Shown here: in pieces, positions 1-43,117 of the stretch
Position numbering within the stretch: position 1 is the stretch's first letter
Layout of the letters: each line of letters starts with the position of its first letter
DNA from: Psilocybe cubensis
Lineage: Eukaryota
Length of the DNA stretch: 64,000 nucleotides
Assembly: GCA_017499595.2 (NCBI GenBank)
Contig: CM039004.1
Span: 806,001-870,000, forward strand
Direction of reading: 5' to 3'
Made by a program: the position numbers and the translations under genes
The notes under the pieces: model-generated
Databases searched by the model: none
Told to the model about the DNA's origin: nothing
Seen by the model: the letters and a program-made list of their open reading frames with translations, nothing else

Positions 1-131
1 CGACATCGTACGCACACCAACAACCCACACCTCCATCATCTTCGCAGCTCAGAGCTACGCACCGAAATAACGATACCACTTCAAACTTCACTTGAATCTT
101 GACCTTGACCTTGATTTTGACTTTAATTACG

Positions 132-1499
132 ATGCCAGCCGACCGCCGCGAACCACACAGCGCCAGCCCCCGCAAAGCTCAAACTAACGCAAGACTTCAC
201 CCCACATCTCCAGTATCTCCCGCACCACTCGCCTACCTCGCCGCCAAACACAACGCCCCCGCGAACCAGCGCTCAAAGGGCTTTCGCCCTGCGCGCGTTA
301 TCGCGCCTCCCGTTACCGTCGAGGGAGAGCGTGATGGCTTGGGAGGTGCGGACGCAGAGGGTGAGTGGGATGGGGATGGGGAGGGGAGGGGGAGTGGGGA
401 TGAAGGATATGCGAGAGGAGGAGGAGGGGGCAGAAGAAGAGGGGGAGCAGGGGAGAGCGACTCGGACTCGGACTCAGATGTGGAGAGTGTGAATGAGATC
501 GACGCGTTTGAGACAGAGACGGAGGAAGTTGACTATCTACAGCAGCACAATGAAGAGGATGAGGAGGAAGCAAGAGACATGCACGATTCAGAATCAAAAG
601 CCCGATATGAGCATGAACCCGCCAGTCCTCCCGCCGCCGCCGCCGCAGCAGCAGCAGCAGCACCTCGACAAGGGACGCAGTCCAACACGACACCCAAACC
701 CATCAAGTTCCGGCCCTTACGCATCCTCGCACGGCCCACAACGCCCGAGCCCAACCCACATACTGAAGAGCGGGGGTCCTCTGACTCTGGTTCGTCTCAC
801 GAGGACTCCTATGAGGATGACGAGGACGAAGACGACTATTCGGACTACGAAGGCAGCGAACGGAGAAGGAGGAGGAGGCGCTTGGACTCGGACTCGGACT
901 CGGAAGTGTCCAGCGTGAATGAGGCGGAGGCGTGGGAGACGGATGATGTCGATGAGCAGTGGGAGTTGGAGTTGGAGTATGAGGCCATGGAGAGGGCCTA
1001 TTATGCTGAGATGGCTGAGATGGAGTGGGAGATGGAAAGGGAGATGGAAAGGGAGATGGAAATCCCTCCAGAAGAACCAGAACCAGAGCTAGCGTCGAAC
1101 CTCGGAGACGACGACGACGACGACGACGACACAGCGCGTCTCGCAGAGGTAGAAGCAAAAATCGACGCGCTGTTGAAAGAAAGAAACGCGATTCTAGCCG
1201 CGCGCGCCCGGGACGGAAAGAAGAAGAAGCAGGCGCCTAACACTTCCCCTGTCCCTGGCCCTAATCCTATCCTTATCTTTACTCTGGGGCCTGCACCTAC
1301 ACCTACACCTGCACCCGTACAGATACCCGTACGGACACCCAAAACGCCTACACCTACGGACCCCACCAACACCAACACCGACAAGGACACGGACCCCGCC
1401 GCGCTGGACGTCAAAGCCGAAAAATGGGTCGCGTATCACGCAACGCTGGTGCAGAAATACGGGGATCAGTATCCCGGTTCGTACTCCTCTCTCCTCTAA
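132..1499 (+). CDS. Acidic low-complexity hypothetical protein with two copies of an S-D-S..V....E.(D/E)(D/E)VD motif
   Basis: Single long ORF (first ATG 132); D/E/S-rich; short coiled-coil-like segment (ARLAEVEAKIDALLKERN); motif shared with ORFs at 3431 and 6600. Confidence 0.65.
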   Translation: MPADRREPHSASPRKAQTNARLHPTSPVSPAPLAYLAAKHNAPANQRSKGFRPARVIAPPVTVEGERDGLGGADAEGEWDGDGEGRGSGDEGYARGGGGGRRRGGAGESDSDSDSDVESVNEIDAFETETEEVDYLQQHNEEDEEEARDMHDSESKARYEHEPASPPAAAAAAAAAAPRQGTQSNTTPKPIKFRPLRILARPTTPEPNPHTEERGSSDSGSSHEDSYEDDEDEDDYSDYEGSERRRRRRRLDSDSDSEVSSVNEAEAWETDDVDEQWELELEYEAMERAYYAEMAEMEWEMEREMEREMEIPPEEPEPELASNLGDDDDDDDDTARLAEVEAKIDALLKERNAILAARARDGKKKKQAPNTSPVPGPNPILIFTLGPAPTPTPAPVQIPVRTPKTPTPTDPTNTNTDKDTDPAALDVKAEKWVAYHATLVQKYGDQYPGSYSSLL

Positions 1500-3430
1500 G
1501 GTCTCTTTCTCCTTCTTGCGTATATGAAAACCTCTGTCTGTCCATGTACTTATCGCCTTACCATTTATATTTCCCTCTTACCAGCAAGCAAGAGCGAGAA
1601 CAAGATCCACCAGATCCTGCGCTACTTCGACAAGTGAGTGACTTTCCTCCAAACACACACAGAGCATCGATCATGGTTCATGGTTCACCTCCTTCCCGTC
1701 CTGCTTAATCTGACCAACTTCCAACCTCGTCAGCATGACAGAGTACGGACCATGCAGTACAACTTCAACGCGTCTTGAGCGGTGGGAGCGGGCGCGGGAT
1801 ATAGGGTTGAATCCTCCGATGGAGGTACGTACGTCTGTCTGTCTTGTGTCCAGTGTCCAGAGCCCACTCCACTTTGCACTTTCCATCGCGCGGTTGCTGA
1901 CTGGATCGGAATAACAGATCTTCGAGATCCTCAACACAGTACAGGGAAAAACGGACGAGAGATATGCTATGTCCGTGTTCAACCTGAAAGCCAAAGCGAA
2001 TGTTACAGAATTCAGAGGGGAATATTAGGGTGATTGGACTTTCAATTTGGGAATTTGGAGTCTTGAGCTTGCAGTCTTGGACGTTGGAGGTATTTAATTT
2101 AAGGTTATGTCATGTTTGTGTCGCGCTGGACGCGTGTTCTGCTTTTCTTTTCCTTTTCGTTCCGTGATGTACTATTGAATGTGAATCGCGATTACTAGCC
2201 GCTACGAGTAGTAGAGCAATCTTTCGGAGAACTCGGAGAATTCTGAAGATCCCACGACATAGCAGACTAGCAGCAGTCAAGCCAAGCCAAGTCAACGCCA
2301 GCATCAAAAAGGGGTATACTCCAAGAAGAAGAGGTCGCGCAGATTCACACTGCATACTCGTGGCAGTTTCAACTATAGAGAGCGGGATGGTCGGGATGTG
2401 GGTGACACCAGCACCGGCACTCAAGATGCGAGTAGCGGGTACGGGAGAACGACAGATTCCGCAATCGCTCTCTATGCGGAACTGGCAATTAACAATGAGC
2501 GGGGAGCAATGGGCGGGCAGCGGGGAGTATGCTCTGAGGTCTGGTTTTCTGGGGTCAAGTTCAAGTTCGAATTCAAGTCACGGCGGACGTGCGGCATCTG
2601 AGTTGTAGGATGGATCATGGATAGTCTCGAGTAACAGGAGACTTTGCAATTGGGAGGGATATAATGATTTAATGGACGCTGAAACTCGCCAACTGCTCAT
2701 AGAGCATCAGCCGAGCATTGACAGGCTCCAGACGTGGAGTCCAAGCCCATATCCAGAAAATTGGAGCAGAGATTCGATTTTGATTTTCTCAGATCCGACG
2801 TGTTTTTGGTGCTCAGGCAGCAGCTGGACGACATGCACGGTCCAAGTCAAGTCCAGGTATCAATGAGATCGAGTGGGCATCTGAGATAGTGAGGCACTCG
2901 ATAGATAGAGAAAAAGTGTGTTGTGGTCGAGTGGGCGGTCAATAGGATCAAACATTGTCGTGGGTGAGAGCAAAGGGTGGGCAAGACTGCAAAGTAGACG
3001 TCACAGCAAAATTGCTGCAAAGTGGCAAAGTGCAAACAAACAAACAAACAACATCTGTACGTAAGCGAAGCGGCGCGTTTGATTGGCTGGATCGGAGATG
3101 TTGTGTTTGTTTGTTTCTGCTTGGTTCTAATTTGGTTCCCACTTAACTCTTGCTTTCAACTCGAAGTCCAGGTATACCCTTGCCAGCGTATTTGCCTTGT
3201 CCATTTGTTCGCCTTTGCCTTTGAAAGATGAAATGCGAAAGATATTCCAATTTACAATCACAGCGAAGAAGAACGTCAACATCACCGTCATCAAGTTCTC
3301 ACTTACTACACCTCAAACGGCGCAAAGATTATTGTAGGTTGCCTGCCTCATGTCATAAAACCAGCATCACACTGACCCTCTTTCGGGATCCACAGAGTCA
3401 GCAAGCATTGAAGTCATTGATACAAGCCGC

Positions 3431-3658
3431 ATGCCTGACCCTCAGTTAGCGGATACTGAAGTTCCAGATGCTTTTGGTGCACCCTTATCCCGTTCTATTT
3501 CATGCGACTCGAGCGTCTTGACTTTGACCGATTTGAACACCAATTTTGAGGAGGACGATGTTGATGAGCAATGTGAGGCAGAGATTACACGCACTGCTAG
3601 GCCTACTAACAATGAGGTGGTGGCCGCAGCCTTGGCCGCGACCACTGCATTGACTTAG
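3431..3658 (+). CDS. Small acidic protein (EEDDVDEQ motif family); may have an upstream exon
   Basis: SISCDSSVLTLTDLNTNFEEDDVDEQCEA aligns with the 6600 ORF; true start uncertain. Confidence 0.55.
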   Translation: MPDPQLADTEVPDAFGAPLSRSISCDSSVLTLTDLNTNFEEDDVDEQCEAEITRTARPTNNEVVAAALAATTALT

Positions 3659-4372
3659 ACTACACTCGTATTTACTTTTTTTAGAAAGATCAGTGGGGAT
3701 TTTTTTTTCTTTGTAACATTTCTGTAGTAAGAAAGGAGGAATAGTGCATGTACTTTCCCTTCAGTAGTCGGCGTTAGAGAAACCGATGACGCCTCCAGGA
3801 TTGTATCCCAAAGTGTAATATAATGATGTAGTCGCGTGATAGCCATACATCATCGCAATGCAGTAATCTATCGTCATTGACTTCCTTTGGTTCTTATTTG
3901 TGCTGAACGATGACTGTAGCAAATTACGTCCAGAAAATCTATCAAAGACGCCTTGCGTAGAAGCTAGAAGTGGCTATACCCGTTCTGTATTTGATATTTC
4001 TCAAGCTATTCAATTCCAATTTTATTGCTATAACGTTTGAATATACTTGCAGAGTATAATAATACAATTACTAGAGTGACTCCTGACAAGCCAAGTATGA
4101 CACATCGAGTTGAGCAATGTGATAATGGCCTTGACAAATCATCTAGAATGATAATGACATTGACAAATCAGGATAGTAAACGACATTATTGAGTTATTCT
4201 ACAAAAGCTCAAGCAAAGCCCACGACTGTAAACACCTCATCGAGAATATGAGCAACGAGAAACGTTTAACCTCGTGTCGATAAACATGCCATTCAAACAT
4301 ACCAATAACAACGAAAGGAGTGAAAGAATTATATTACACACGAGAAATTAGTCACAATGCCCATCCCAAATA

Positions 4373-5349
4373 CAGTTGAGGACAATCAAAGACATCAATT
4401 TTTTTGCACGAATTATGTAGACTATGACAAACATGTAGGGTGCCTAGAAACTGTTTAAATAGGTAATACTACGTCTAATTAAACGATTTGCACGAGCAGA
4501 TTTTTCAGATTCAACTTTTTTGGAAAAAATTTCTCAAAAAATTTGGCGGTGGTCAAAAAAATTCGCTAAATTCTCGAAAAATTCATTTTTGGATAGCTTT
4601 TGATATTCTGGGTTCGCGCCTGAAATATCGAAAAAATTTATCGAGCCATTCCCCTTAAATAAATTCGGCAAGATGCCACCTAACGGCAGACCACCCAAGC
4701 AAATGAGGAACATTTCCGGCCTAACACGATAACTTTCTCAATCTTCTTTCTCTCAAGGCCATGAATGCATTTTGAGTGAAAATTCCATTGGAAATTGAAC
4801 CCTGTAGAACTGGCAAGCTATTATACTTTTTAGCTATGGCTACTCCTATTCATAAACTATGTCTATAGTGCTGGGGATGACTGTGCAATACTGCTGTTGT
4901 GAAGTTGAAAAAAAGACATTTCAAGAAGCAGCTAGGATACAGAATCTGAGGGAAAAAAAAACATCTTGAAGCACTTCCAAAGCATGTTCCACCAATAATA
5001 TTTGTTGTTTCATCAATTCCTCCTGGCACTTTACGGGTGCTTATCTTGATTTGACGGCGAGTACAGCGGTGTGGGCAGTGAGAAAGCAAAAGTAGGCCAG
5101 CCGATTTTGCAGCGAGTAATTCGTGGTAAAATTTGGAGTCGCCGAGCTGCCCGGCACCAAGTAACATGACTATATTTTGAAATTTTTTGGCCAAAAAATT
5201 TGGCGGTGGTCAAAACCTCGTGGGAATTTTACGAAAAGTGTGTTTTTAGACGCTATTTGACTGTCCGAGTTCGAATCCGTCGTTAGTTTTTGCCAGAAAA
5301 TTCGCGTTCCTGAGATACGAAAATTGATGTCTTTGATTGTCCTCAACTA
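4373..5349 (+). mobile_element. Internally deleted, non-autonomous Tc1/mariner-superfamily DNA transposon
   Basis: 30-bp TIRs CAGTTGAGGACAATCAAAGACATCAATTTT (4373-4402 / 5320-5349, 29/30); TA on both flanks; decayed transposase-like pieces MPPNGRPPKQMRNISGL (~4673), KFHWKLNPVE (~4780), AVWAVRKQK (~5070). Confidence 0.85.
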
Positions 5350-5772
5350 TACAACATTCTTAGGTAATTATAGGTGGGGAGAGCCTTACTTACAGCAAGG
5401 CGACGTAGGTCGATGGGGATTGCCGATCTCCCCGACATTCTCGGGAGTTGCTATTCAATACAAGGTGCTAAGATCCAAATTATTTACGAAAAGCAGACCC
5501 AAATGAACCACAACAAACCATATCATGGCTGTGTATATAAATGACTAGGGGCCCAATAATCTCGTCTCATACGGTCTCCCATTATCATGATTTGGTATTT
5601 ACTCAGACGAAGTCGAGTGTTGACCAAAGATTAACAATGACCACAGTCAATTCAGACTAGCTCAAAATACTAATATTACCATCAAATACACTACAAGGAA
5701 CCCTGCCATTGGCAGTGGGGATACTGCTCCCCAGGGAACGACCTCCACTAGCTGGATCCAGACGCGGCTATT

Positions 5773-6565
5773 AGGGGAGGTCAGAGTGGACGATTCGGAG
5801 GCGATTCAGCGACACGATTCAGAGACGATTCTGGTCATCAAAAGCGTGGGAAGACGCTGAATCGCCTCAGAACGTGAATCGCCGAATCGCTGAATCGTCT
5901 CTGAATCGTCGAAGCGGCTCCAGAGCCGCTTCGACGATTCAGAGACGATTCAACAGCTTGATTCTACTCAGCAGAATCGAGCAGTATTTAATTTATTAAT
6001 TATTTTCAATTTACCTAATTGTATATTTGATCTTGACATGATCAAGATTTTTCTCCATCATCGTGAGGGCTGGTGTGATACACAGACTCTTTCTGTGAGG
6101 CTCTCACTATGGCCGCCAAAAATTCGAGCCGTACAACTCGTTCAGCATCGTCAAAATCGCTCAGCAAGACCACGTTACCCAAGAAACCTACCAAAACACA
6201 GGCCAAAAAAGCAAAATCTACACGGCGGGCCAAACAGAAGGAGGCTGAGGTGCTTGTAGAGTCATCGGATGGAGAATCGGATTGTTCTGAGATAGAGAAC
6301 GAGGCAGAAGGAGAGGATCTATCCAAATGCTCGATTGAGTGCGTACAAAACCTTCTCTCAAACTACTTTTAAACAACTTTTATTATCAGTTGGCACAAAG
6401 ACCATCCGTGAATCGCCTACTGAATTGAAGGTGAATCAAAGTTTTGAAATGGGGGGGTCAGAGTGAATCGCGCTTCGGAAGCAAATTTCTGCGTCAGAAT
6501 CGGTCTTGAATCCTGACCTGAATCGTTCGCAAATCGCCTCCGAATCGTCCACTCTGACCTCCCCT
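5773..6565. mobile_element. MITE / non-autonomous TIR element (~0.8 kb)
   Basis: Perfect 35-bp inverted repeat TAGGGGAGGTCAGAGTGGACGATTCGGAGGCGATT (5772-5806 vs 6532-6566); ATT (or TA) target duplication; many subterminal GATTC/GAATC repeats; internal K-rich then acidic ORF 6109-6372. Confidence 0.9.
5891..5952. repeat. Perfect hairpin, 30-bp arms with 2-nt loop, inside the MITE
   Basis: TGAATCGTCTCTGAATCGTCGAAGCGGCTC-CA-GAGCCGCTTCGACGATTCAGAGACGATTCA. Confidence 0.95.
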
Positions 6566-6599
6566 ATTGTTCGTTCGGATTCCAGGCACTCAAACTGCA

Positions 6600-6872
6600 A
6601 TGCTTGTCATAGACCGCACACCTGCGCTCATGATAGAGGGTGCAGCGAGCTCTGGGAAATCTAATTCCGAGCAATCCACACGCTCAGACGTCTCCCGATG
6701 CTCCAGCGCTTATAGCAATATCTCGAGCGACTCGACCGTTTCGACCATGCATGATATGATCGACCAGTTCGAGGAAGACGACGTCGACGAACAAATGGAG
6801 GCCATGGCGCGCGAGCACGCGGGGATGTCGGGAGACGGAGAAGGCATGGGTGCAATGGGAGTTGATAATTGA
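6600..6872 (+). CDS. Small acidic protein (EEDDVDEQ motif family), probably the 3' part of a MITE-interrupted gene
   Basis: NISSDSTVSTMHDMIDQFEEDDVDEQMEA; frame stays open back to 5624 when the MITE is removed. Confidence 0.55.
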   Translation: MLVIDRTPALMIEGAASSGKSNSEQSTRSDVSRCSSAYSNISSDSTVSTMHDMIDQFEEDDVDEQMEAMAREHAGMSGDGEGMGAMGVDN

Positions 6873-8431
6873 GTTCACAGAGAAAGAGGGTCTCTGGTTT
6901 GAAGTCAGCGGTATGCTGCCCTCCGGTTTTGTGCCCATTGCTCCGGGGATGATAGTCTCTCTCTTAGATGCATTGGCAAATTGAACTATTCTCGACGACG
7001 ACACAGGCAAATTTAAAGCGCTCTGTATGCATTAAACGGACCCGGGAAACTAAATAAACTAGACGCGATATCTGAAATGTATATAGAGATAGAATCAACC
7101 TGTATCCTGATCAAGGAGGCAGTATATTTTTAAGACGAGATGTATACAGTGTCGCAATAAAGTTTCTTTGTATACGATGTGAAGGTTTATTGACTTCAAG
7201 TATGAGTTAAGTCATCAAAGGCTGCGTTCAAGGTGTATTTAGACTTTGGAATTAAATGCACTACTCCTTAAATCGGCACACCACCGTGCCCCACTGGATA
7301 TATGACCTCAATGGTCGTAGAAAAGCAACAGGCCAACGAAAACGAGTTCGTGACCGAGTCCGCCATCTCAAAAAATTGAACTCACGAATGCTTTTTTCCT
7401 TCTCCCAACATTCTCCTAACCCAACGAGCTAGTATCTTAAGCAGTATTGATGTACCGATTGGGATCTCTCATGCTCTCAGCTGATTACCAAATCGTCGGA
7501 ACATTATCGCGACTCACGCGTCACGGTCAAACTACGCGTGACGACGAAGAAAAATGTCAATGAAACCGCCTCTGTTCTGTTATACCACAGCGCTTCCCCT
7601 CCAGATTCCAGACCCTGTTTTTTTCTCTCATCAAACGGAAAGCAGTCATCAGGTTTAGATTCGCCTGGAATATTGCCTCCGGACACGTAGCCGACAAGAA
7701 GGGATGATGGTGCTATGGAAGCAGGAGCAAAGGATGCCCAACCAACTCACTCCTCTCAGACATGACCCCAGCCACATTTTGAAGAACACGACGTCGAAGT
7801 TTAGCGGGGACGGAAGATGATATGTCATGAGATTTTCATTGATGCTGGGAAAACAGTAGGTATTCCTACTTACATTGTACGTATAGCCTCGTTCAAACGC
7901 TTCTAGCAAAGATTACTGACATCGTTTTAATGGGACCCACAACTTAAGTCTTAAAGAACCTATTACATGCTGCATTATGGCCTGCTATGACTCCTCAACT
8001 GCACGTTTCGAGGTAAGGTTCGATCGCGCTTTTCCTGAAAGGCTGTTAATTTCTTTGGCACGTAACATTTGTATAGGGGTTCGGCTGCCAGTAATGTGCG
8101 AAATTACATGCGCGAATTGCATGTCGTGGCAATGGACAACATATCATCTATACAAGCGATAAGACAAACCAAGCTATTCCGAAATGTGGTTGCTTCGTCG
8201 ATTGCGTTCTAGTAACACCACTCACTACCTCCGGCAAATACTTCAGGATGTTGTTCCGGCTCGAGATCTCCGACAACATGCCGCTGCCATACGACGCCAG
8301 ATGAAATGACCAGGCGCTTAGGGTTATAACCGCAATTCTTTCAGCATGTCAGGATATACTTGGGAACAACGTGCCTACGTATATATATCGCAGCAAACAG
8401 ATTCTATCATGACTCACGACTGAGGCCAGAC

Positions 8432-10131
8432 ATGGACATTACAACCCCTGAGATGCGACGCCGTCCTGATACTTCGCTCTCGACAGAGACGCAGATCAAA
8501 GTGGAGCCAAGCCGCTATAGCAATGTCGCTCAATTGCCTGTCACAACACTGCCAGGTCGCCCTGTATCCCCGACTCAGACCGGCCCTCATGAAGAGGGAT
8601 CGACCAAGGAAGCCTATTCTGCCAACATGCATCAGCGTCGACTTATCAAATACTGGATCCTCTCCTCCATTGCATTCTGCATCATAATGCCTTTGTTATC
8701 CATTCTTCTCGGCTTTTTCTTGCACACGAAAGGTCTCAGCTACACCTCTCCAGCGGGAAGCTTTGGAGGAAGGAATCTGTCGATCAGCGCGTATCTTATT
8801 TCAGCAGACCCTACATCATCGGTGATAACTTTCGATTGGGGTGTGGACACCGACACATGCATTCTAGAGTCAAAGACCGTTGGTGAATGTACCGACGTGA
8901 ATATTTTTTTTGACAAGTAAGCTTTCTACCTCCACAAAACAACTCGCAATATTGTCTGAATGTTTGGGAATAATTAGCAACCTTTTGGACAATTCTGACG
9001 ACAACAACAATGGCGTGCCTAGCACTGACGTTCCCTCCACGCCCCTGTTCCGTTTCAACGCTACTGCCTTTTCGTCGGATTTTAGAGCCAACACTCCTAC
9101 CTTCCGAACCAATATACGTTTATTTCAAAAAGGCACCCCTCGCCGCTTGTCCCTAGTAAACTACCCATTTGATACGTGAGCACCTTTTTATATTCCTCAA
9201 CAAGTGATACTTACGTGTTTCTATTCCCAAATAATAGCTACGCTGCCACCGTCTTCATGTATGCACAAGACAGCAACAATAAACCAGTCAATCTCCATCT
9301 CGACATTGTGGGAGGTACTGCCGTGTAAGTACCATCATCAACAAGATGCATCTATACTAATGGCGACATCACATCCAGTGGTTTCTCGGTGTCGCTGCTA
9401 ACTTCGAACCAGCCAAACTCTGGGCTGGAATCGGAGGTTATTAACACAGTAATCAACGTTCAGAGAGGTTCTTTGATTATTGCGTTCTGTGTGATTATCA
9501 CCATTGCAATTTGTCAGCTATATACCTTTTTTAAACCGGAATACTTGCACTCATACTCATGTTTCTGCTATTTCAGGGATTATCACATTGGCATTATTCC
9601 TTCTTTCGTTCACCGCCGTCGTCTTTGGTTTCCGCCAGCGTACAGAGGTCTTAATCATTCCTGTTGCCACTGTGTTTGCCTTCACCCAGTTGCGTGGCAG
9701 TATGCCAGGTGCCCCACCCGGATTTGGTGTGTCCTGCAATCGTTAAGACCTCCAACGTGTAACTTACCACCCATATAGGCGATGTTCTCGGTTGGTACCC
9801 GCTTGCCGGGCTTTACTTGAAAATTTTAATGTGCTAACGGCGGGTTTACTGCAGACTTTGTCGGCCTACTACCTTGCCTCGGAATTCTCAGCTTCTCAGT
9901 AAGAAAGTTTCTGTCTGGCCTCAAAGCAAAATTTGATTGTCTTTATAGTGCGCTTTGACACTGGGAGCGCTGTTAATCACAGACCCCACAGAAAAAGAAG
10001 TGTTAACGTGGGATATGGTTAAGCGTACGTACTACACCCTGTTGATAATGTCATTGTCTCTAAAAGGTTCAACAGCGGAAATTTTGCCTGCTCTGGGGAT
10101 CAAGAGGAGACTTGCCAGTCAACTAGCATAG
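8432..10131 (+). CDS. DUF4436-like multi-pass membrane protein (spliced)
   Basis: N-terminal TM, NYPFD motif, C-terminal TMs with IPVATVFAFTQLRGSMPGAPPGFG and DFVGLLPCL; several short GT-AG introns. Confidence 0.7.
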
Positions 10132-10459: not shown

Positions 10460-11641
10460 TTACTGTGTGGGGAGGGAGCCCACATCCACTGCTGGGATCT
10501 GTCCAGTAGCTGGCCGACTGAAGGTCGCGTTGAGGGGCACATAATCTGAGAAGAAGCCCCCATTACGAAGGTAGAAACGGCCATTTTCGACTCCTCCAGC
10601 GTAGTCCATGCGTTGCGCGTTGTTTGCAGTGGCATCTCCGGTGTAGTATCCAGTTGTGAGCTCTGTCCAGGTTCCGTTTAGATTGCGACCCCACTGGTTA
10701 CCGTACAGAGCACGCCGGCCCGTATAACCCTTGGTGTCAATGAAATTCTCAAGGAAAGAATGGGTACCGGACTGATATGCGGTAGTGGCCGGACGCTTCC
10801 AGGTGGCAATGTAGCGCCAGGTATTTAGCTCTGGGGCGAAGAACCAAGCAGAGTACAGAGTGCTTCCAGCGCCATCGGGACGAATACGGGTGATGAATTT
10901 GTAAGTGTTACCGGCGATCCAATTGAATACGAGATATGTTTGACCACCACTTCCTTCATGATCAAAGCTGTTGTCGACGACTCCCGCGCCCTTGCTGACG
11001 AGCGTAGTCTTCTGTCCATTGTCCGCGTCCCATACAGAGAAGAGGACCCATCGGTCATTCTCGCGGACCTGGATGCCTGAATATCCTCCATCAAATCCCG
11101 CGGCCATGAAGTACGAGCCGACGACGTCTTGACCGACTGGAACTGTCACTTCGTTGTAGAAGTAGTCGTTGTTGGGTGGGATAGTGTAGTTCATATGGAC
11201 TGATGGTCCGCGACGCGACCAGTAAAAATTGGCGGGGTCGTTGGCAAAATTGGTTGCCGAAGAAGTAGTGATGCTCAGGCCCGACACATCGCCAAAGTAT
11301 CCTCCGTCCTTGGTCACTCCTTGAAGGTCGACCTTCACGTATCCAGGAGCAGCTACGCTAACAGTCCCTACAGGATACGTCTTAGGAGTCGTTCCGGATA
11401 GCTGAACGTTGAACGCTGTCCCGTTGATGGTGACTTTGACGGTACTGTTGTTACTGCCCGCCAGATACGCGTTTAATCCGACTGTAACTGCGCCTGCAGA
11501 AGCCATACGGAAGTACGCGCTGGTGATGGTGCTTGCGCTGTTCCAGTTGGCCAGGCCGTTGTCGTTGATGACTTCGCTTGCGCCTGTCGCAGCGGTGGTA
11601 ATGAAGGCATTGCCTGCAAATGCTACTGTTTTCGTTGACAT
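10460..11641 (-). CDS. Intronless DUF5077 + DUF3472-like beta-rich protein of bacterial type
   Basis: Uninterrupted ORF from ATG 11641; motifs FYWSRRGPSVH, FYNEVTVP.GQD..GSYFMA.GF.GGY.GIQ, VLFSVWD, EGSGGQ, HSFLENF, RMDYAGG. Confidence 0.8.
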   Translation of the reverse strand: MSTKTVAFAGNAFITTAATGASEVINDNGLANWNSASTITSAYFRMASAGAVTVGLNAYLAGSNNSTVKVTINGTAFNVQLSGTTPKTYPVGTVSVAAPGYVKVDLQGVTKDGGYFGDVSGLSITTSSATNFANDPANFYWSRRGPSVHMNYTIPPNNDYFYNEVTVPVGQDVVGSYFMAAGFDGGYSGIQVRENDRWVLFSVWDADNGQKTTLVSKGAGVVDNSFDHEGSGGQTYLVFNWIAGNTYKFITRIRPDGAGSTLYSAWFFAPELNTWRYIATWKRPATTAYQSGTHSFLENFIDTKGYTGRRALYGNQWGRNLNGTWTELTTGYYTGDATANNAQRMDYAGGVENGRFYLRNGGFFSDYVPLNATFSRPATGQIPAVDVGSLPTQ

Positions 11642-33841: not shown

Positions 33842-36800
33842 ATGGTAAAACGCCCCAAATCCCCCGAAATCCGCGAAGAAGCGCGGTACTTCACCGTCTA
33901 CCAGCCGTACCCACTGCACGCGAACTGGATCATGGAGGAGGACCAGAAGAAGTGCGCGATGTGGGTCGCGGAGTGTATTGGTGTGAATCACTTGTGGGCG
34001 ATACATTATAAGCCGAAGGTGAGCTGCGCGTTGTGGTTTTTGTGGGTGGGTGGATGGATGGATGGATGTTAATGCCACCACCACCCGACGGCGCCACTGC
34101 CGCCCATCCACCCCACCCAACCCCACCCAACCCAACATCGCCCATCCAACAGTGAACTAACCTTCTTCTCCCCTCCTTATCCCAACAGGCTCGCGGCATG
34201 ATCCTCCTCGAAGTCTCCCGCAAATTCACCGACCACGGGCGCCTTCTAGGCGAGCACCGCTGGTCATCCACACTCACCTCGCCCGACCCGCTCGAAGCAC
34301 GCGCTGCGACGAAGGTATTTCACAGCTTTTATACGACGGGGCGGGACGCGCAGAAGGATGGGTGGAAGGCGATTGCGATTCCGAATGTGTGGTTTAAGGA
34401 TTGGGTCCCGGGCAATGGGTGTGTGGCTTTCTTCCTTGAATGAGATTGGGATTGGGATTGGGATTGGGATTGGAGCTGATTGGAGTGTTTTATAGGTTAT
34501 TCGTCCGCCCGTATCCAGCTACACATTGGTGTGCGGTCCCAGTTGAAGACAGAACCAACAAGCCCATGTGCAGACCACTCCCATCGGAGCAGAAGCCGCC
34601 CCCGCCACGGTCTAAAGGACAAGGTGCGTCTTTGCGTCTTTGCGTCTTTGCGTTGTTGCGTTTTTTTTGCGTCCCCCCACTCTTCTCTTCTCTTCTCTTC
34701 TCGTCTCGAGCGATATCTGACTCTTCCTCCCTCCCTTATTTCCTTCCGCTGCACTACCCCACTACCCCATACATCTCCATCACAGTCGTCGGTTCCTCGC
34801 AATGGGTCGAAAAACAAGTCGACCCGTCCTCACCTACGCCCGGGCACAGCCAGAACAGCTCCATAGGCGGATCGCCCGTGTCGAGTCATACGTCGCTTCC
34901 TCTCCTTCCCCTTACCGGTGCCCTTGGACCAGGAATAGCAACTGGAATGGGAACTGGAACGGGCACGGGAATGGGAACGGGAACGGGAATGGGAACTGGA
35001 GGTATGTGATATATCCCACCCTGTGGGGCTCTGTAGTTGTTGTTGTTTGCTGATATGATACACTTGTAGGAACTAGCGAAGCTACAGCTAAATTGTCTAT
35101 GGCTACAGCTAAATTTTCTATGGCTACAGCTAAATTTTCTATGGCTACAGCTAAATCGTCTATGGCTACATCTACATCTACAGGTACAGGTACATCTACG
35201 GCTACGCCGGCTCTTGGAGTCGGAGAAGCACCCACAGGACCCACAGGACCTAAACCCACAAACGCGAATGTGCCTACTGCACCACGAGCAATGCGTGCGT
35301 ACCCGTTTTCATTCTCTCCATCTCTCCATCTTCCCATCCTCCTCCTCCTCCTCACTTTCTTCTTAAATCATAAACCTAACAACATATCTTATTTTAAATT
35401 TCCGATTTACAGGCGGCAAACAAACGACGATGACGATGTCCCTCAACGAATTCATCGCAGGGCCTTCGAAGCCCAAGAAAGCAGGATGGAACAACGACAA
35501 GGGCAGCTCAGCGGGTGGGAATAAGAAGTTTTCGTTGAAGGATGCGGAGGCGGATGCGGATGCGCCGCCTGTTAATGCTTGTACGTCTACCCTTTGCTTC
35601 CCAAGACACTTTCTTACTCTCACTTTCTTTCTTTCTTTCTCTCATTCATTCTATTTCGTTCTTTCTCCTTCCCTACCTACTACCTTACCACCAACCAACC
35701 AACCAACCTACCCACCTACACACAGGGTCCAAAAAACTACACATCCCCCCTTCAGAAAAACAAACGATGATTCTGCCTACACCCGCAATATGGACGCTCG
35801 ACGAGACGACGGATTATTCGGGGTGGGATATTCCCATGTCGCCTGCGCCTGCACATGAACGTGAACTTGCACCTGAACCTGAATTTGGACCTGAACTTGG
35901 ACATGGATATGGACCTGATTTCGCGTTGGCGCAGAAGGCAAACGCGAAGGCGAAGGCGAAAGAGGGTTCGACTTGGGCGGGCAAGGCAAAGGCTTCGGCA
36001 TCGACATCGGCATCCGCGGCAAAACCAAAGGCTCAGGCTCATGCTCAAGCAAAGCCGAAGACGACCTCGAATGAGAAAACAAAGGCGAACGCGAACGCGA
36101 AGGCAAAGACGGGTTCGTCAAAGGAGACACGTACACGTGTGTAGCTTTTTTCCCTCTTTTATTGGGTGTATTAGGATAGGAATAACATGTTTTTTCTTTT
36201 TTTTTCTTTTTTTTCTTTGTTCTTTTACCTCTTTGTTGTTGTATGTGGGGTGCGGTGTGGTGCGGTGTGGTGTATGTGTGTTGATTGATATTGGGTGTCG
36301 ATTGTTGGTTGTTGGTCCGTTTGTGGTGGTGGTGTATGGGTGTTTGTTTGGTGTTTTTTGGTGTGATAGGCCCTCAAGCAGAAACAGATCAAGAACCAGA
36401 TTCAGAACCAGATCAAGAACCAGAACCGGAACAAGATCAAGATCGCGATCAAGCTTCTTTGTCTTTGTCACCTTTGTCTCCTCGCTTCTCTCCTCGCGCC
36501 GACACGGATGGAGAGGGAGAGCATCCACACAAGAGCAGGCGGCGGGACAGGGGCAGCAAAGGAAAGGGCAAAGAAAGAGAAAGAGGAGATACATCGGAAA
36601 GAGACGATGTGGATAAGGGGTACAGTCACAGTTACAATCACAATTACACATCAAGGACGCAGTCCAACGCACAGGAGGATGTAGAGATGGCAGACGCACA
36701 AAACGACGACAATGACAACGACAAGGAAAAGGACAAAGGGGAATCAAAAGTAATCTACGTCCCCGAACCAGACCCTACAAACCCAAGCATGTTCACGCCC

Positions 36801-37586
36801 AAAGAGATGCAGCGCGAGCGCGATCGGAATGGCGGGTTGAGGCCGTGGGAGAGGGGAAATATTATGTGGGATGTGGACATGGATTGGGCGGCGTATGTGC
36901 AGGAGAATGGGGGTGGGGGCAGGGGCGTGGGTGGAGGTGAGGGTGGGGGTGGGGGTGGGGATGAGAAGGGGAAGGGTAAGGAGAAAGAGAGGGATAAAGG
37001 GAAAGGCAGGGAGAGAGACAAGTACAAGGAGCGTGATCGTGACAGAGATCGTGACCATGTTCGTGACCGAGAACACGACCGTGACCGTGACAGAGAACGC
37101 GACCGGGACCGCGACAGAGATCGTGACCGCGACCGCAATAGGGATAGAGACCGAGAGCGCGAAAGGGACAAAGACAAAGACAAAGACAAAGCCAGAGCTC
37201 GCGACAAGGATACCGATCGTGACCGCGACCGTGACCGCGACCGCGACCGCGATCGTCATCATAAGGATAAGGATAAGTATAAAGATGGTGAGCGCGACCG
37301 TGATCGAGAGAGGGATAGAGATAGGGGCAAGGACGGGTATAAATCCAGCCATCGGGAACGCGAACGCGAGAGTCGGCGCGATAAAGACAGACATGGAGAG
37401 AAGGAGAGAGATCGTGATAGAGACAGGGATAGAGATAGGGATAGGGATAGGGATAGGGATAGGGAGCGGCGGGATAGAGACAAGGACAGAGACCGCGACA
37501 GAGACCGCGACCGCGACCGTCATCGCAATAAAGACCGCGACCGCGACTACGACCGCGACAGAGACACGCGCGATCGCAATAACGAT

Positions 37587-37624
<38 letters not shown>

Positions 37625-40600
37625 AGACCACGACCACGATCGCGACCAAGACCGCCCCAACCACAACCACAGCCAACAAGATAAAGAGGACCCCTCCAAC
37701 TCCCAATCCCAATTCCCCTCCCAAACCCAAACCCAAACCCAAACCCAAACCCAAACCCACCCCCAAACCCCCTCCAACCACACCAACAAACGCAAATCCG
37801 ACACCAGCTTCGACATCAACGGCGAGCTGCGGTACGACGCCAACGGCAACCCCGACAACTCGCATGAGAGCCGGAAACGGATGAGTCCTGGGCCTGTGCG
37901 CGGGCGTGGGGATGGGCGTGGGCGTGGAGGTGGGGATTGGGGAGGTGGGGATGGTGCTGCGACGTGGGCTTCGTTTGGTGCGTCTGCGTTGGAGGCGCAG
38001 GCACAGTCGCAGTCGCAGGCGGAGCCATCGTTTGGGTCGTCTGCGTCTCCGTTCAAAGCCCCGGCACAAGCAGAGCCAACGATCATATGGGATCTAACAG
38101 CACCTACATCCAACGCCAACGCCTACGGAGCCTCGCCTTGGGCTGACGATCCTGCTCCTTCTCCTGCTCCCGCTCCTGGTTCTGCTTCTGGTCACGGTCA
38201 CGGTCACGGTCACAGCCACGCTCACACCCATAGTGCAACAGCCTCGCCTTGGGCTGACGATCCTTCTCCTGCTCCTGCTCCTGTTCCTACTCCTGGTCCT
38301 GGTCCTGGTCCTGATCCTGGTCCAGCTGACTCAGCCGATATCCCAATGCCCTCTCCATGGGCATCATCCCCAGCCCGTCCTCACAACCGCGCAGAAGAAG
38401 ACGCGAGGGCATGGGGCAGCGGCGGCGGTGCTGATTCATCTAGATCTCGTAATCGCGCAGAAGAAGACGAAAAGGCATGGGGTGGTGGTGGTGGTGGTGT
38501 AGCCGACAGCCAGTGGGCGTCGATCCTAGGCGTAGGCGACTCGACGGCAAACTCATGGAGCGGGTCTGTAGCGGGATCGCCATTCAAATCCGACCGTGGC
38601 GGCGGTAGAGGTAGAGGTAGAGGTAGAGGCGGTAGCATCCACGGCGCTAACAGCAGCATCTACGGTGGCGACCGTGACCACGGCGGTAGCACCATCCGCG
38701 ACCACGGCAGCATCCGTGGCAGCGACCGTGGCGGCGACCGTGGCGGAGGACGTGGCCGCGGCCGCGGGCGCTACAGAGACCCGCACGACACCTACATCCC
38801 CCCTGCCCCATTCGGCAGCGGCGAGCGGCGAAAGCCAGGCGAAGGGCTTGCGCGTGCTGCCAAGTTTGCCGTTGAGTGGGCGCCTAGGAAGAGGAGGGGC
38901 GGCGATGGGGGCGGGAGCGGGGGCGGCAACAAGAACAAGGATAAGGAGAAGGAGGTTGGCGGGTGGGACGGCAACGCCGAAAAACGGCGCAAGGAGATGG
39001 AAGAACGCAAGGCGCAAACCCAGGACGTAGATATGAGCGCTATAAACGACTGGGCCAACCCCTACCCCAACCCCAACCCCAACCAGGGTAAAACCCTCAC
39101 TGGCATCAACGACTGGGCAAACGACGGCATCGACGACGCAAGTGAATGGGCCGACACTGGGGCCGAGGCCGAGTCGGAATCTGGGGCTCATATACGCAAT
39201 TGGGCGAATGCGGTGGTGGATGATGGCAGCGAGTGGGCGGAGCATGATAGGCCACCTTTTGCTTCTGCTCCTCCTTCTGCTGTCGACGAGGAAGAGGAGG
39301 TGGAGGATGTGGATGTGGAGGATGTGAATATGGAAGAAGGCGTCGAAGATCCGCCTGCGTCTGTGGACGACGGATCTGCGTCTGCTTCTGTTTCTGCCTC
39401 CGCTGAAGCTGGGGCTGGAGCTGAGTTCAACGAAGAAGAAGGGGGCGGGGGAGATGATACTGTTGAGGCGGACACAACAGCGCACATGGACGTGGACATG
39501 GACTGGGCCTCCGCGCCTGCACCCGCGCCTACAAAAACCTCTTACGCTTTGCCCGCTTCTTCTTCTTCATTTGCACATATCACCAACACCAAGACGAAGA
39601 AGGACAGAGCAGCCGAGGCAGAGGCAGAATGGGGTCTTCCTCCTCCCGTACCCGACAAAGCCAAATCAAAGAAAGAGGAGAAGAACAAAGCTGTCGAGTA
39701 CGACTGGGCAGGCAACCTAATCGACGTTGACGAGTACATGAAAGAATGGGGCGCCCCTTCTCCTCCTCCTGCTTTTGCGCCGACTATGAAGGAAAAAGGA
39801 GGAGAGAGGAAGGAAAAAGAAAAACAAGTCAAGCTAGACTGGGCAGGAAACCCAATCGGCGGCGATCCAGATGCCGATATGGCGGTGTGGGGTGGTGGTG
39901 GTGGGGTTGAGAGGAAGGACAAGTACAAGCAACAGGAAAAGGAAAAGGACAAGGAAAAGGAAAAAGAAAAAGAAGTCAAGCTAGACTGGGCAGGAAACCC
40001 CATCGGCGGCGATCCAGATGCTGATATGGCGGTGTGGGGTGGTGGGGCAAAGCAAAAGCAAAAAGAGAGAGAAAAAGAAAAAGAGGTCGAGCTAGACTGG
40101 GCAGGAAACCCAATCGGCGGCGATCCAGATGCCGATATGGCTGTTTGGGGTGGTGGTGGTGGAGGGGGGGATGAGTTCGCGTCTTCTTCTTCTTATTCTA
40201 AGACGAACGAGAAGGCGGACAGGAAGGAGTTTAAGAAACCGGACTTCAAGAGGAAGGAGAGTAGGTGGGGTGAGGGTAGGAGTGAAAGCAGGAGGAACGA
40301 GAGCAGGGGTGAGGGTAGGTGGGGTGAGAGTAGGAGTGAAAGTAGGAACGAGAGTAGGAAGGGTGAGAGTAGGTGGGGTGAGAGTAGGAGAGACGATAGT
40401 AGCAGGAGGGATGATAGCAGGAGCAGGAACTACGACACCAGAAGCTACGACAACAAACGGAACGACAGCAGGAACTACGAAAGCAAACGGAACAGCAGCG
40501 GCAAAAACTACGATGGCGATGGCAGGAGCAACCGCGACGATAGCAGGAGCAGGAGCAACGCCTTCAGCAAGAAGGAGAAGAGGGATAAGGGGAGTAAGGG

Positions 40601-43117
40601 GAGTAAGAAATATGAAGGAGGCAAAAGTGACTTTGACTGGGTAGCCAGCCTCAACCTCAACTTCAATCACAATCACAACCATAACGTCAACCACAACGAG
40701 CCCAAGTCTGATAGAGCACCCGTCGAGCTCGATTGGGCTGGTAATCCCATTACCGTCGATCCAGCGGAATGGGGTCTCACTCCAGAAGACGTCGCACCTC
40801 TACCTTCCCCATTCCCTTCGTCAACCAAAGCGAACAAGAAACGCAAGGACGTTCCACCGGACTCGGATTGGGCTGGCAGTTCAGCACATGGCGAGAAGGC
40901 AGAGGCAGAGGCAGAGACGGAGGCAGAGGCGGAGGCGGGCAATGAAGTCGAGTTGGACTGGGCGGGAAATCCTATTGTGCGCGATATCGCTGCTGAGATG
41001 GCCGCGTGGGGGTTGAGCGCTGCTGATTTCGCCGCCCCCTCCTCCTCTACCTCCACCTCCGACGTTGGGAGGGGTGCGGGTGTGTGGAATGTGAATTTGG
41101 ATGTGACGACGGCGGGGGCGGGGGCGGGGGCGGGAAAGTCAGTCAAAGAGGAAGAGCTGATCTGCCCGACGCATAATATTGCGTGTAGGAAGGGGATATG
41201 TAGGGATATGGCGGAGCTTGTGAGGGTTAATCGGAAGCGCCGCGAGCGCGAGATGCGGGAGAGGGGTAGGGAGGGGGGTAGAGAGGGGGGTAGGGAGGGG
41301 GGTAGGGATAGAGAGGGTAGAGAGGGTAGAGAGGGTAGAGACAGGGACAGGGATAGGGACAGGGATAGGGATAGGCAGAAGGATAAGGATAGGAGGGGAG
41401 GAACTTCACGGAGTAAGTTTTTCGAATGATGTGAATGGTATAGTATAGGATGCGTTTCTGACGATTGATGATAGCGCCTTTGCCTTCTCCGTCTAAAAGA
41501 CAACAACAACCATATCGAGCGCCTGAGACTGAGAAGGAAAAGGAGATGGAGATGGAGGTCGAGCTGGACTGGGCGGGTAATCCTGTCAAGGGCGATCCGA
41601 CGGAGTGGGGTCTTACACCTGAGGAAGTCGCGCTTGCACCCACCGCCTCTTCATCCAAACTCAAACAGCCAAAACAGACAGAAGTCGAATTGGACTGGGC
41701 GGGGAATCCTATCAAGGGCGATCCGACGGAGTGGGGGCTTACACCTGAAGAAGTTGCGCCTGCACCCATCGCATCTTCATCCAAACCCAAACCCAAACCC
41801 AAACCCACCAGACAGCCAGAAGTCGAATTGGACTGGGCGGGCAATCCTGTCAAGGGCGATCCTACGGAGTGGGGGCTTACACCTGAGGAAGTGGCGCCTG
41901 CACCCGTCGCATCCTCGTCGAAACCCAAACCCAAACCCAAACCCACCAGACAGCCAGAAGTCGAATTGGACTGGGCGGGCAATCCGGTCAAGGGCGATCC
42001 TACGGAGTGGGGGTTAACGGAGGAGGATGTCGCGCCTTTGCCTTCTACGAAAGGAAAACAAAAGGAGAAGGAGGTCGAGTTGGACTGGGCGGGTAATCCT
42101 GTCAATGATGATCCGTCTGTGTGGGGGTTAACGGAGGAGGATGTAGCGCCTTTGCCTTCTAACAAAGGGAAAGGGAAAGGGAAGCAGAAAACCGTTGAAC
42201 TTGATTGGGCGGGCAATCCTGTCAATGATGATCCGTCTGTGTGGGGTTTGACGGAGGAGGATGTAGCGCCTTTGCCTTCTAATAAAGGGAAAGGCAAGCA
42301 GAAAACCGTTGAACTTGATTGGGCGGGCAATCCTGTCAATGATGATCCGTCGGTGTGGGGTCTCACGGAGGATGATTTGCAAGGAGAAGAAGAAAAAGAG
42401 CCAGAGCTAGATTGGGCAGGCAATCCCACCACCACGACATCCTGGGCATCAATAGCAGGCGCAGGCGCATACAAGTCCCCTGTAGATAATATCACGAGAG
42501 TGGAAGATCTCGTTTGCCCGGTGCATGGGAGGGCGTGTAAGAGGGATGGGTGTCCGGATATGGCGAATTTGACGTGGGAGTTTAATTGGAGGGAGAGGCA
42601 GCGGGTGAAGGCGGCGCAGAGGGAGAGGGAGAGGGAGAGGGAGAGGGAGATGGCGGCGAGGGGTGGTGAGTTTATTTATTTATTTTTGTTTTTTGTTTTT
42701 TTTCTTTTGGACTGTTTGGTTTGGGTGGTTGCTGATGTGTACATGTTTGCTTTGGTTTTGTTTTGTGTAGGATCGCAAGGTCTATGGGGCACTCCAGAAG
42801 CTCCCGCTCCCGCTGCGAAAAGGCGTAGACGAAGGAGTAGGAAAACGGAGCCGAAGCATATTATGAAGCCTATGCTTATGGGCACGATGAGAGGGTTCCA
42901 CACGGACGATTTGAAGAGGGCGAAGGCGGAGAAGGAGGCTAGGAAGTTGATGGAGGAGGCTGAACTTGCTGAGGGTGAGGCTGAAGGTGGAAGTGGAGGT
43001 GAAGCTGAGGGTGAAGATGGAGGTGGAGGTGTTGATAAGAGTCGACTTGAAGATGTTGCGGAGGACGATCGTGAAGGTGCGGATGCGGAAGATGATCGGA
43101 TGGCTGTGGAAGTGTAG
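33842..43117 (+). CDS. Very large, mostly disordered repeat protein: folded N-terminal domain, RD tract, RG segments, 14 DWAGN repeats, two CxxH-x3-C-x4-C modules
   Basis: Exon 1 (MVKRPKS..HYKPK) splices to ARGMILLEV..; the 1714-aa and 550-aa ORFs join in frame via intron 41413-41474; some internal exon boundaries uncertain. Confidence 0.7.
35081..35170 (+). repeat. 21-bp minisatellite x4 (GCTACAGCTAAATTTTCTATG), coding ATAKFSM
   Basis: Directly visible tandem units. Confidence 0.9.
37030..37650 (+). repeat. Hexamer microsatellite tract encoding (RD)n/(DH)n
   Basis: GACCGC/GATAGG/GACCAC iterations. Confidence 0.9.
41555..42430 (+). repeat. Coding tandem array, 8 units (mostly ~110-130 bp) of VELDWAGNPV..DP..WGLT
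   Basis: Units visible at both DNA and protein level. Confidence 0.95.

Follow-up and report, generated by a model that had tools for sequence, protein, structure and literature searches.

The small subunit POLD4 of DNA polymerase delta (Pol delta; p12 or Cdm1, Pfam family PF04081) binds PCNA in filamentous fungi through a QxxLxF motif (PMC10087552). For the Pol delta accessory subunit Pol32 of budding yeast, an RPA-binding module has been described that is activated by phosphorylation and is able to act without a PCNA-interacting-peptide (PIP) box (PMC13237216). The basic groove of the N-terminal domain of RPA70 (RPA70N; described in general terms in PMC4337903) is bound by RAD9 through F298, D301, D302, I303 and M307, by MRE11 through F540, D543, D544, L545 and I548, and by ATRIP through F55, L60 and L63, with an acidic residue just before the aromatic anchor in RAD9 (D297) and ATRIP (D54) (PMC10479964). 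Trans-microProteins are defined as proteins of at most 150 amino acids (aa) with a homologue in the same genome that exceeds them in length by 40 aa or more, and in the current model they pair with this parent through a dimer domain (PMC7534434). The locus considered here lies in a stretch of 64,000 nucleotides (nt) of the fungus Psilocybe cubensis (GCA_017499595.2, contig CM039004.1, positions 806,001 to 870,000, forward strand), hereafter the window; the assembly comprises 46.6 Mb in 21 contigs, and its genes are intron-rich. A predicted POLD4 paralogue at 132–2028, termed POLD4b, carries an acidic motif twice in its first exon, and two small open reading frames (ORFs) downstream, ORF2 and ORF3, carry the motif once each. 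The reading that we favour, although tentatively when taken as a whole, combines a history of inverted duplication with docking of the motif on RPA70N.

The first-pass annotation had taken 132–1499 to encode a complete, small and unrelated protein, but this stretch corresponds to exon 1 of a predicted 531-aa POLD4 paralogue with a PF04081 C-terminus. The junctions were predicted from splice signals and from homology with the ordinary POLD4 copy upstream. With the donor placed after 1476, four exons (132–1476, 1585–1633, 1734–1824 and, including the stop codon, 1918–2028; all on the plus strand) give an open frame of 531 aa with GT-AG introns of phases 1, 2 and 0; two alternative exon 1 donors gave no open frame, and the stop at 1499 falls within predicted intron 1. 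Exon 1 has 448 codons, mostly of low complexity, with a coiled-coil-like helical segment at 1140–1211 (+), and its end (1389–1476, +) aligns with ordinary POLD4. Exon 2 is 86% identical to the ordinary copy over 44 nt, and exon 3 matches PF04081 at 1735–1824 (37.7 bits against a cut-off of 25, E 3e-9) as well as the solved p12 chains 9ekb_D and 6s1m_D (E 2.4e-5 to solved p12). We regard it as practically certain that POLD4b is a POLD4 paralogue; because exon 1 contains no QxxLxF PIP motif, it would be a variant rather than a typical member. Two sequencing runs, X1 and X2, are RNA by guess; their contigs bridge GT-AG introns, such as that at 8916–8978. Over exon 1 these contigs cover 1–263, 487–574 and 913–1476, one of them ending at the predicted donor, and no POLD4b splice junction was seen in them. 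Overall they cover 16 and 12 of 30 bins, with exons 2–4, ORF2 and ORF3 outside them, a coverage that carries no weight either way. A 12-nt repeat in exon 1 (1017–1062) varies in length among runs through in-frame insertions.

PF04081 has exactly two matches in the genome, POLD4b and a gene on the minus strand 6 kb upstream of the window. The predicted product of this ordinary POLD4 is 411 aa long, with the same intron phases (1, 2, 0) as POLD4b and with QxxLxF at residue 16; the acidic motif is absent from it (profile score below 0 bits). Over the C-terminal residues the two products are identical at 53 of 99 positions, and the proportions of synonymous (pS) and nonsynonymous (pN) differences are 0.66 and 0.31, respectively. 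Downstream of each POLD4 stands one of two copies of a neighbour gene, 75% identical to each other in DNA over 1,837 columns and lying on opposite strands. The presence of this gene after each POLD4 on opposite strands therefore makes an inverted duplication of the block containing POLD4 and its neighbour well supported. In the window, the first exon of the neighbour gene that closes the block is at 8432–8916 (+), its twin lying downstream of ordinary POLD4, and its intron at 8916–8978 is the one bridged by an X2 contig. Upstream of it, 7684–7843 is covered by contigs of both RNA-like runs, with GT-AG joints next at 8010–8075; this segment is possibly an untranslated leader of the neighbour gene, and it covers position 7775, where a sequence weakly resembling the motif core directly follows a stop codon. 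Between ordinary POLD4 and its neighbour gene lies a perfect palindrome (74-nt arms, 1-nt loop; centre at contig position 797553; about 1480–1628 of locus L012), whose counterpart in the duplicate block is only a partial match near window positions 7839–7921. The two inverted blocks enclose a gene for a ubiquitin-like and WLM-domain protein and a nitronate monooxygenase gene (L012, 5007–5860 and 6822–7289). WLM proteases are DNA-repair enzymes; their vicinity to the POLD4 copies may be a matter of chance.

The motif itself is real and goes beyond chance. Numbered from its aromatic residue as position 0, copy 1 (885–980) shows a Ser/Asp stretch, the aromatic W268, Asp-Asp-Val at +3 to +5 and Trp at +9; copy 2 (3497–3580, in ORF2) has F39 at position 0, and copy 3 (6720–6803, in ORF3) has F57 there, with Met at +9 and +12. 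A degenerate copy 0 (459–560) is an internal duplicate of copy 1, with 78% identity over 59 nt. The ORFs at 132–1499, 3431 and 6600, the DDVDE strings at 942, 3554 and 6777 and the degenerate copy at 507 stand where the first-pass annotation had placed them, all on the plus strand, and a genome pattern search recovered the three codon strings for DDVDEQ as quoted there. Genome-wide, E-x-DDVDEQ has three exact matches, all at this locus, and nine with at most one mismatch, compared with two for a reversed-pattern control; looser patterns gave 25 matches with at most one mismatch and five exact ones. DDVDEQ alone has four exact matches, three of them here and the fourth within a poly-Asp run, and the chance of finding three of the four sites inside 5.9 kb is about 2e-7. 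Residue shuffles of the three ORFs contained DDVDEQ in 6 of 100,000, 2 of 200,000 and 5 of 200,000 cases and [FW]E-x-DDVDE in none. Of the looser-pattern matches elsewhere in the genome, none scored above 5.4 bits on the profile, as compared with 17.8 for degenerate copy 0. In the alignment of copies, Glu is invariant at +1 and at +10, as are Gln at +8 and an upstream Asp-Ser-x-Val. S/T-x-x-D/E sites, the consensus for acidophilic kinases, number 5, 3, 2 and 1 in copies 0 to 3.

The claim that the motif belongs to no named family holds as well: no Pfam family scored above its cut-off for the motif, a four-sequence profile found no match among solved structures, and Foldseek returned none for a model of a 45-residue motif peptide. 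A likeness to the TFIIA large subunit was tried and set aside (E 2.2 with three sequences, lost with four); none of ten PF03153 matches in the genome lies at this locus, and the motif core is absent from this genome's TFIIA. An Rfam scan of 1–10000 returned no match, and a sigma-70 scan gave 12 hits against 9.0 expected under a model unsuited to a fungus. At the level of literature listings, the DDVDEQ string came up for ankyrin B and for an Arabidopsis phosphoproteome.

ORF2 (3431–3658, +; 75 aa) and ORF3 (6600–6872, +; 90 aa, predicted to be largely disordered, with an Atlas pLDDT of 0.43) carry nothing recognizable but the motif and sit between POLD4b and the neighbour gene that closes the block. 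Both lie in single-copy DNA, and a DNA search found no second genome copy of 2100–4360 or 6570–7800. They resemble each other over about 28 codons only, with 18 of 28 residues identical and 11 of 12 in the core, and their flanks outside this block show 18% and 29% ungapped identity. Within the block pS is 0.78 and pN 0.22 (Fisher p 3.7e-5), in agreement with the earlier claim that the motif is conserved as a peptide. In 20,000 runs of a neutral simulation, 11 of 12 core residues were retained in 12%, 1.7%, 0.02% and 0% at distances of 0.25, 0.32, 0.45 and 0.6. The ORF2/ORF3 motif has probably been under selection at the peptide level; the case is strong if the flanks share ancestry and have reached saturation, and weaker if the copying was confined to the block. 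For the motif as a whole we hold such selection to be quite probable.

As to origin, the free-standing family of small disordered proteins that had been proposed gives way to a simpler history, in which the motif is at home in the N-terminal exon of a POLD4 paralogue, the small ORFs being best read as trimmed local duplicates of the N-terminal region of POLD4b. From the sequence comparison it is very probable that ORF2 and ORF3 derive from the motif region of POLD4b, with the motif alone kept. A longer gene model could be built for neither: a candidate 62-nt intron upstream of ORF2 (3334–3395, +), proposed from sequence signals, would on removal join an ATG at 3228 to the ORF2 frame but leaves a stop at the junction. 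Databases contain both sequences letter for letter; such entries may stem from gene prediction on this very genome. Whether the putative proteins are active today is nearly an even question, leaning slightly towards the negative.

The surroundings of the small ORFs differ between strains. Two inserted elements, at 4373–5349 (32-nt terminal inverted repeats, with TA flanking each end; presumably Tc1/mariner-like) and at 5773–6565 (35-nt terminal inverted repeats, 3-nt target duplication; which we take to be PIF/Harbinger-like), are absent in DNA runs X3 and X4, whose skips measure 979 and 796 nt, respectively. In DNA runs the depth over both elements is raised 2- to 10-fold, and they therefore belong to multi-copy families. 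Within the second are a 30-nt hairpin and an ORF of 87 codons; this element stops 34 nt short of the ORF3 start and parts ORF3 from a TATA-like octamer with a putative promoter role (5534–5541, +): the octamer lies 270 nt from the ORF3 start in the empty-site allele and 1,066 nt from it in this assembly.

Outside this genome the motif is narrowly distributed, as the first-pass annotation had supposed. When a profile of three copies was searched against 1.84 billion representatives, three proteins came back at E<=0.001, namely ORF2 itself (P0001), P0002 and one true relative, P0003 (E 1.6e-8); P0002 (E 3e-12) was rejected as a repeat artefact, its nine repeats covering only profile positions 6–23. 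P0003, of 246 aa and from one 3.3-kb Logan contig, shows QxxLxF at residue 14, the motif at 71–104, the coil that also occurs in POLD4b and the block that ends POLD4 exon 1, and reads as a POLD4-type exon 1 continued into its intron. It aligns with POLD4b over 182 columns (28%, E 2e-11) and with ordinary POLD4 over its last 26 residues only (E 4e-7). Used as a query against the genome, it found all four motif copies and the ordinary exon 1 end (six of eight matches), and no other locus at E<1. P0003 may be either an orthologue of POLD4b or a representative of the unduplicated ancestral type; in the latter case POLD4 and POLD4b would have split an ancestral pair of motifs. POLD4 is usually taken as a single small subunit with an N-terminal PCNA-binding motif, and the duplicate described here splits the two motifs cleanly, P0003 holding both. 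No homologue of ORF3 was found in the size range searched, 49–158 aa, and none of exon 1 at E<=0.01 among 8,000 scored; a further search with an alignment as query returned P0003 alone. Of 378 pattern matches in metagenome contigs none was confirmed, and the five exact ones, all without the Ser-rich half and in unrelated frames, were discarded. In the ESM Atlas, ORF3 and P0003 gave no usable feature match, and all structure matches fell below the bar for naming.

What the motif may do is suggested by its layout. A Ser/Thr stretch, an aromatic anchor, an acidic core and, in the models, a following helix point to a docking module for a basic groove, and its roughly 20 residues mix acidic with hydrophobic side chains, as do RPA70N binders. 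The RAD9/MRE11 spacing, with an aromatic residue at 0, Asp at +3 and +4, an aliphatic residue at +5 and a hydrophobic one at +8 or +9, fits all four intact motif copies; it occurs in 0.06–0.4% of shuffles and at one site in 104,289 background residues. Low-depth AlphaFold2 models place helices at 90–153 in P0003 and at 32–44 in the motif 45-mer, and the motif is modelled as an extended stretch with the helix starting at +3 or +5, which resembles the description of RAD9 (PMC10479964). On our reading, by analogy, the motif may work like the RPA-binding motifs of the RAD9/MRE11 type, and RPA70N is a possible partner, to which we give roughly one chance in three; the yeast Pol32 module provides a precedent. 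The history behind this proposal is well supported: ordinary POLD4 kept the PCNA-binding QxxLxF; POLD4b retained the C-terminal domain through which the subunit fits into Pol delta, has no QxxLxF and contains two copies of the acidic motif; and further partial local duplication produced ORF2 and ORF3, which retain the motif alone. Under the proposal, the acidic-hydrophobic motif would dock in the RPA70 N-terminal basic groove through its aromatic residue, then Asp-Asp-Val, then the helix, and phosphorylation of the preceding Ser/Thr stretch may strengthen this docking. In this scheme, single-stranded DNA coated with RPA would replace PCNA as the anchor to which POLD4b tethers Pol delta, and the products of ORF2 and ORF3, if made, would compete for the same groove. 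The roles first suggested for the small proteins are in this respect partly borne out: the motif does look like a short docking-type motif, and a decoy role is possible for the two putative products. It is tempting to go further and imagine two forms of the fourth Pol delta subunit, one gripping PCNA and the other gripping RPA via a tandem acidic module, with two free micro-proteins competing for the RPA70N hub and tuning checkpoint signalling or break-induced replication, and a polymorphic transposon by which one of them may be silenced in certain strains; we consider this picture improbable.

Several observations weigh against the favoured reading. The spacing match was found only after PIP, TFIIA and Pol32-type classes had been tried, and the four copies, being related, count once. 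RPA70N-binding motifs share little sequence homology (PMC10479964), and a match in spacing therefore proves less. Only one of the four copies has the acidic residue that RAD9 and ATRIP show at -1; position +8, hydrophobic in ATRIP and MRE11, is Gln in all four, and ORF2 has Cys at +9. The Pol32-type pattern phi-D/E-x-phi-phi, sought by inspecting the alignment, was not found across copies, with near misses only and at differing places, and 1.8 kb of this genome's intron-broken Mre11, read in three frames, contained no such spacing as that described for MRE11. The selection test is biased, since the block was picked for its similarity, and at the block's own distance of 0.32 the neutral runs still reach 11 of 12 core residues in 1.7% of cases (12% at 0.25). 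In exon 1, 12 of 20 codons that vary in other runs change the residue (drawn from 21 of the 40 places listed, with 337 further places outside the listing), so that the exon appears loosely constrained; and the only outside relative known is P0003, from its single contig. A complex prediction for the 45-aa ORF3 motif peptide with the genome's own RPA70N gave 0.01 and 0.02 (mark, 0.34), which is evidence neither way, as no alignment was used, the RPA chain was a first-exon frame read into its intron with the last strand missing, and peptides or disordered chains are an untried class for the tool.

The same history may have served another partner. Histones, a PH-type domain or another replisome protein would also offer basic surfaces, and the small ORFs would then titrate that protein. 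All of the evidence on history and selection applies equally to such a partner, and the RPA spacing leaves the invariant residues (Glu +1, Gln +8, Glu +10) and the upstream Asp-Ser-x-Val unexplained. However, no Pfam family, solved structure or Foldseek match points to a particular candidate, and the RAD9/MRE11 spacing is rare in the background; we rate this alternative just behind docking on RPA70N. Slightly less favoured again is the view that POLD4b duplicates, once longer, have decayed or are decaying and that ORF2 and ORF3 are what is left of them, now without function; the motif would be the capped start of the long POLD4b helix and would have been conserved as long as these genes were complete. 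The P0003 model, in which one helix runs from the Asp-Asp-Val core to residue 153, would suit this, as would the junction stop left by the candidate intron before ORF2, the lack of any ORF3 relative in the size range searched and the separation of ORF3 from the TATA-like site by an element that other strains lack. Yet both frames are open with start and stop, a state retained in 4–19% of neutral ORF2 runs, their G+C content is 0.50 and 0.55 as against 0.37–0.45 in the flanks, the motif has outlasted any alignable similarity of the flanks, and neither ORF has the coil or a POLD4 exon close by.

The independent small disordered family of the first-pass annotation, with the POLD4 link as a later fusion of one member, could draw on the absence of the motif from ordinary POLD4 and on the spacing shared by copies 2 and 3, which is one residue off from that of copy 1 and P0003. 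It is nonetheless very unlikely, since the sole relative found outside, a POLD4-type exon 1, has QxxLxF as well, and no further member turned up in the genome or among the 1.84 billion representatives. Should the motif bind RPA, as the favoured reading of duplication followed by docking on RPA70N supposes, the Pol32–RPA link would extend to POLD4 and two natural motif-only test peptides would be at hand; should it not, what is left is a narrow lineage-specific duplication with two remnants, that is, a corrected annotation and little more.

Other features of the window and its neighbourhood may be recorded here. At 10460–11641 (-) lies an intron-free ORF of 393 aa with DUF5077 (E 8e-39) and DUF3472 (E 6e-91), which is unusual in this intron-rich genome and possibly of bacterial origin. 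Low-complexity frames of 1,714 and 551 aa at 36285–43117 (+) contain an ELDWAGNP-type repeat that recurs, along with two short Cys/His clusters. Upstream of the window, a 1,395-codon open frame at contig positions 790439–794623 (+) and a second frame at 779479–780189 (+) read, as we assume, like a retrotransposon polyprotein and a tyrosine recombinase, respectively, and a small gene group occurs in two tandem near-copies at 784.5–788.4 kb of the contig. In this genome's Mre11, a C-terminal exon frame (contig C13, 3' part of the gene) holds a QxxLxF site of the same pattern as the fungal PolD4 PIP.

Set against the systems described above, POLD4b is like POLD4, including PolD4 of Chaetomium thermophilum, in its C-terminal domain and in having a long, low-complexity N-terminal region (PMC10087552). 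It differs from the Chaetomium protein in length (about 531 as against 208 aa), in being a second copy and in its two acidic motif copies and coil, and the QxxLxF of the Chaetomium type, present in ordinary POLD4 and P0003, is absent from it. Literature searches returned no paper joining p12/POLD4 to RPA70N, and, among the titles listed, none on a fungal POLD4 duplicate and none, under microProtein topics, on RPA. With the RAD9, MRE11 and ATRIP motifs of the checkpoint recruitment domain type, the POLD4b motif appears to share its spacing, including a hydrophobic residue at +9 as in RAD9, and a modelled change from extended stretch to helix (PMC10479964); it differs in the extra invariant residues upstream and in its hosts, a polymerase subunit and free-standing small ORFs, and its binding is putative. 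The Pol32 module (PMC13237216) is similarly acidic-hydrophobic, has Ser/Thr residues nearby and lies in a disordered part of a Pol delta accessory subunit, but Pol32 corresponds to POLD3, not POLD4, and the module has no sequence homology to the motif. Finally, ORF2 and ORF3, at 75 and 90 aa, are of the size and origin of trans-microProteins (PMC7534434), their homology to the longer protein running via the motif; in contrast to such proteins, they lack the coil of their parent and would therefore compete for a third protein rather than pair with the parent.

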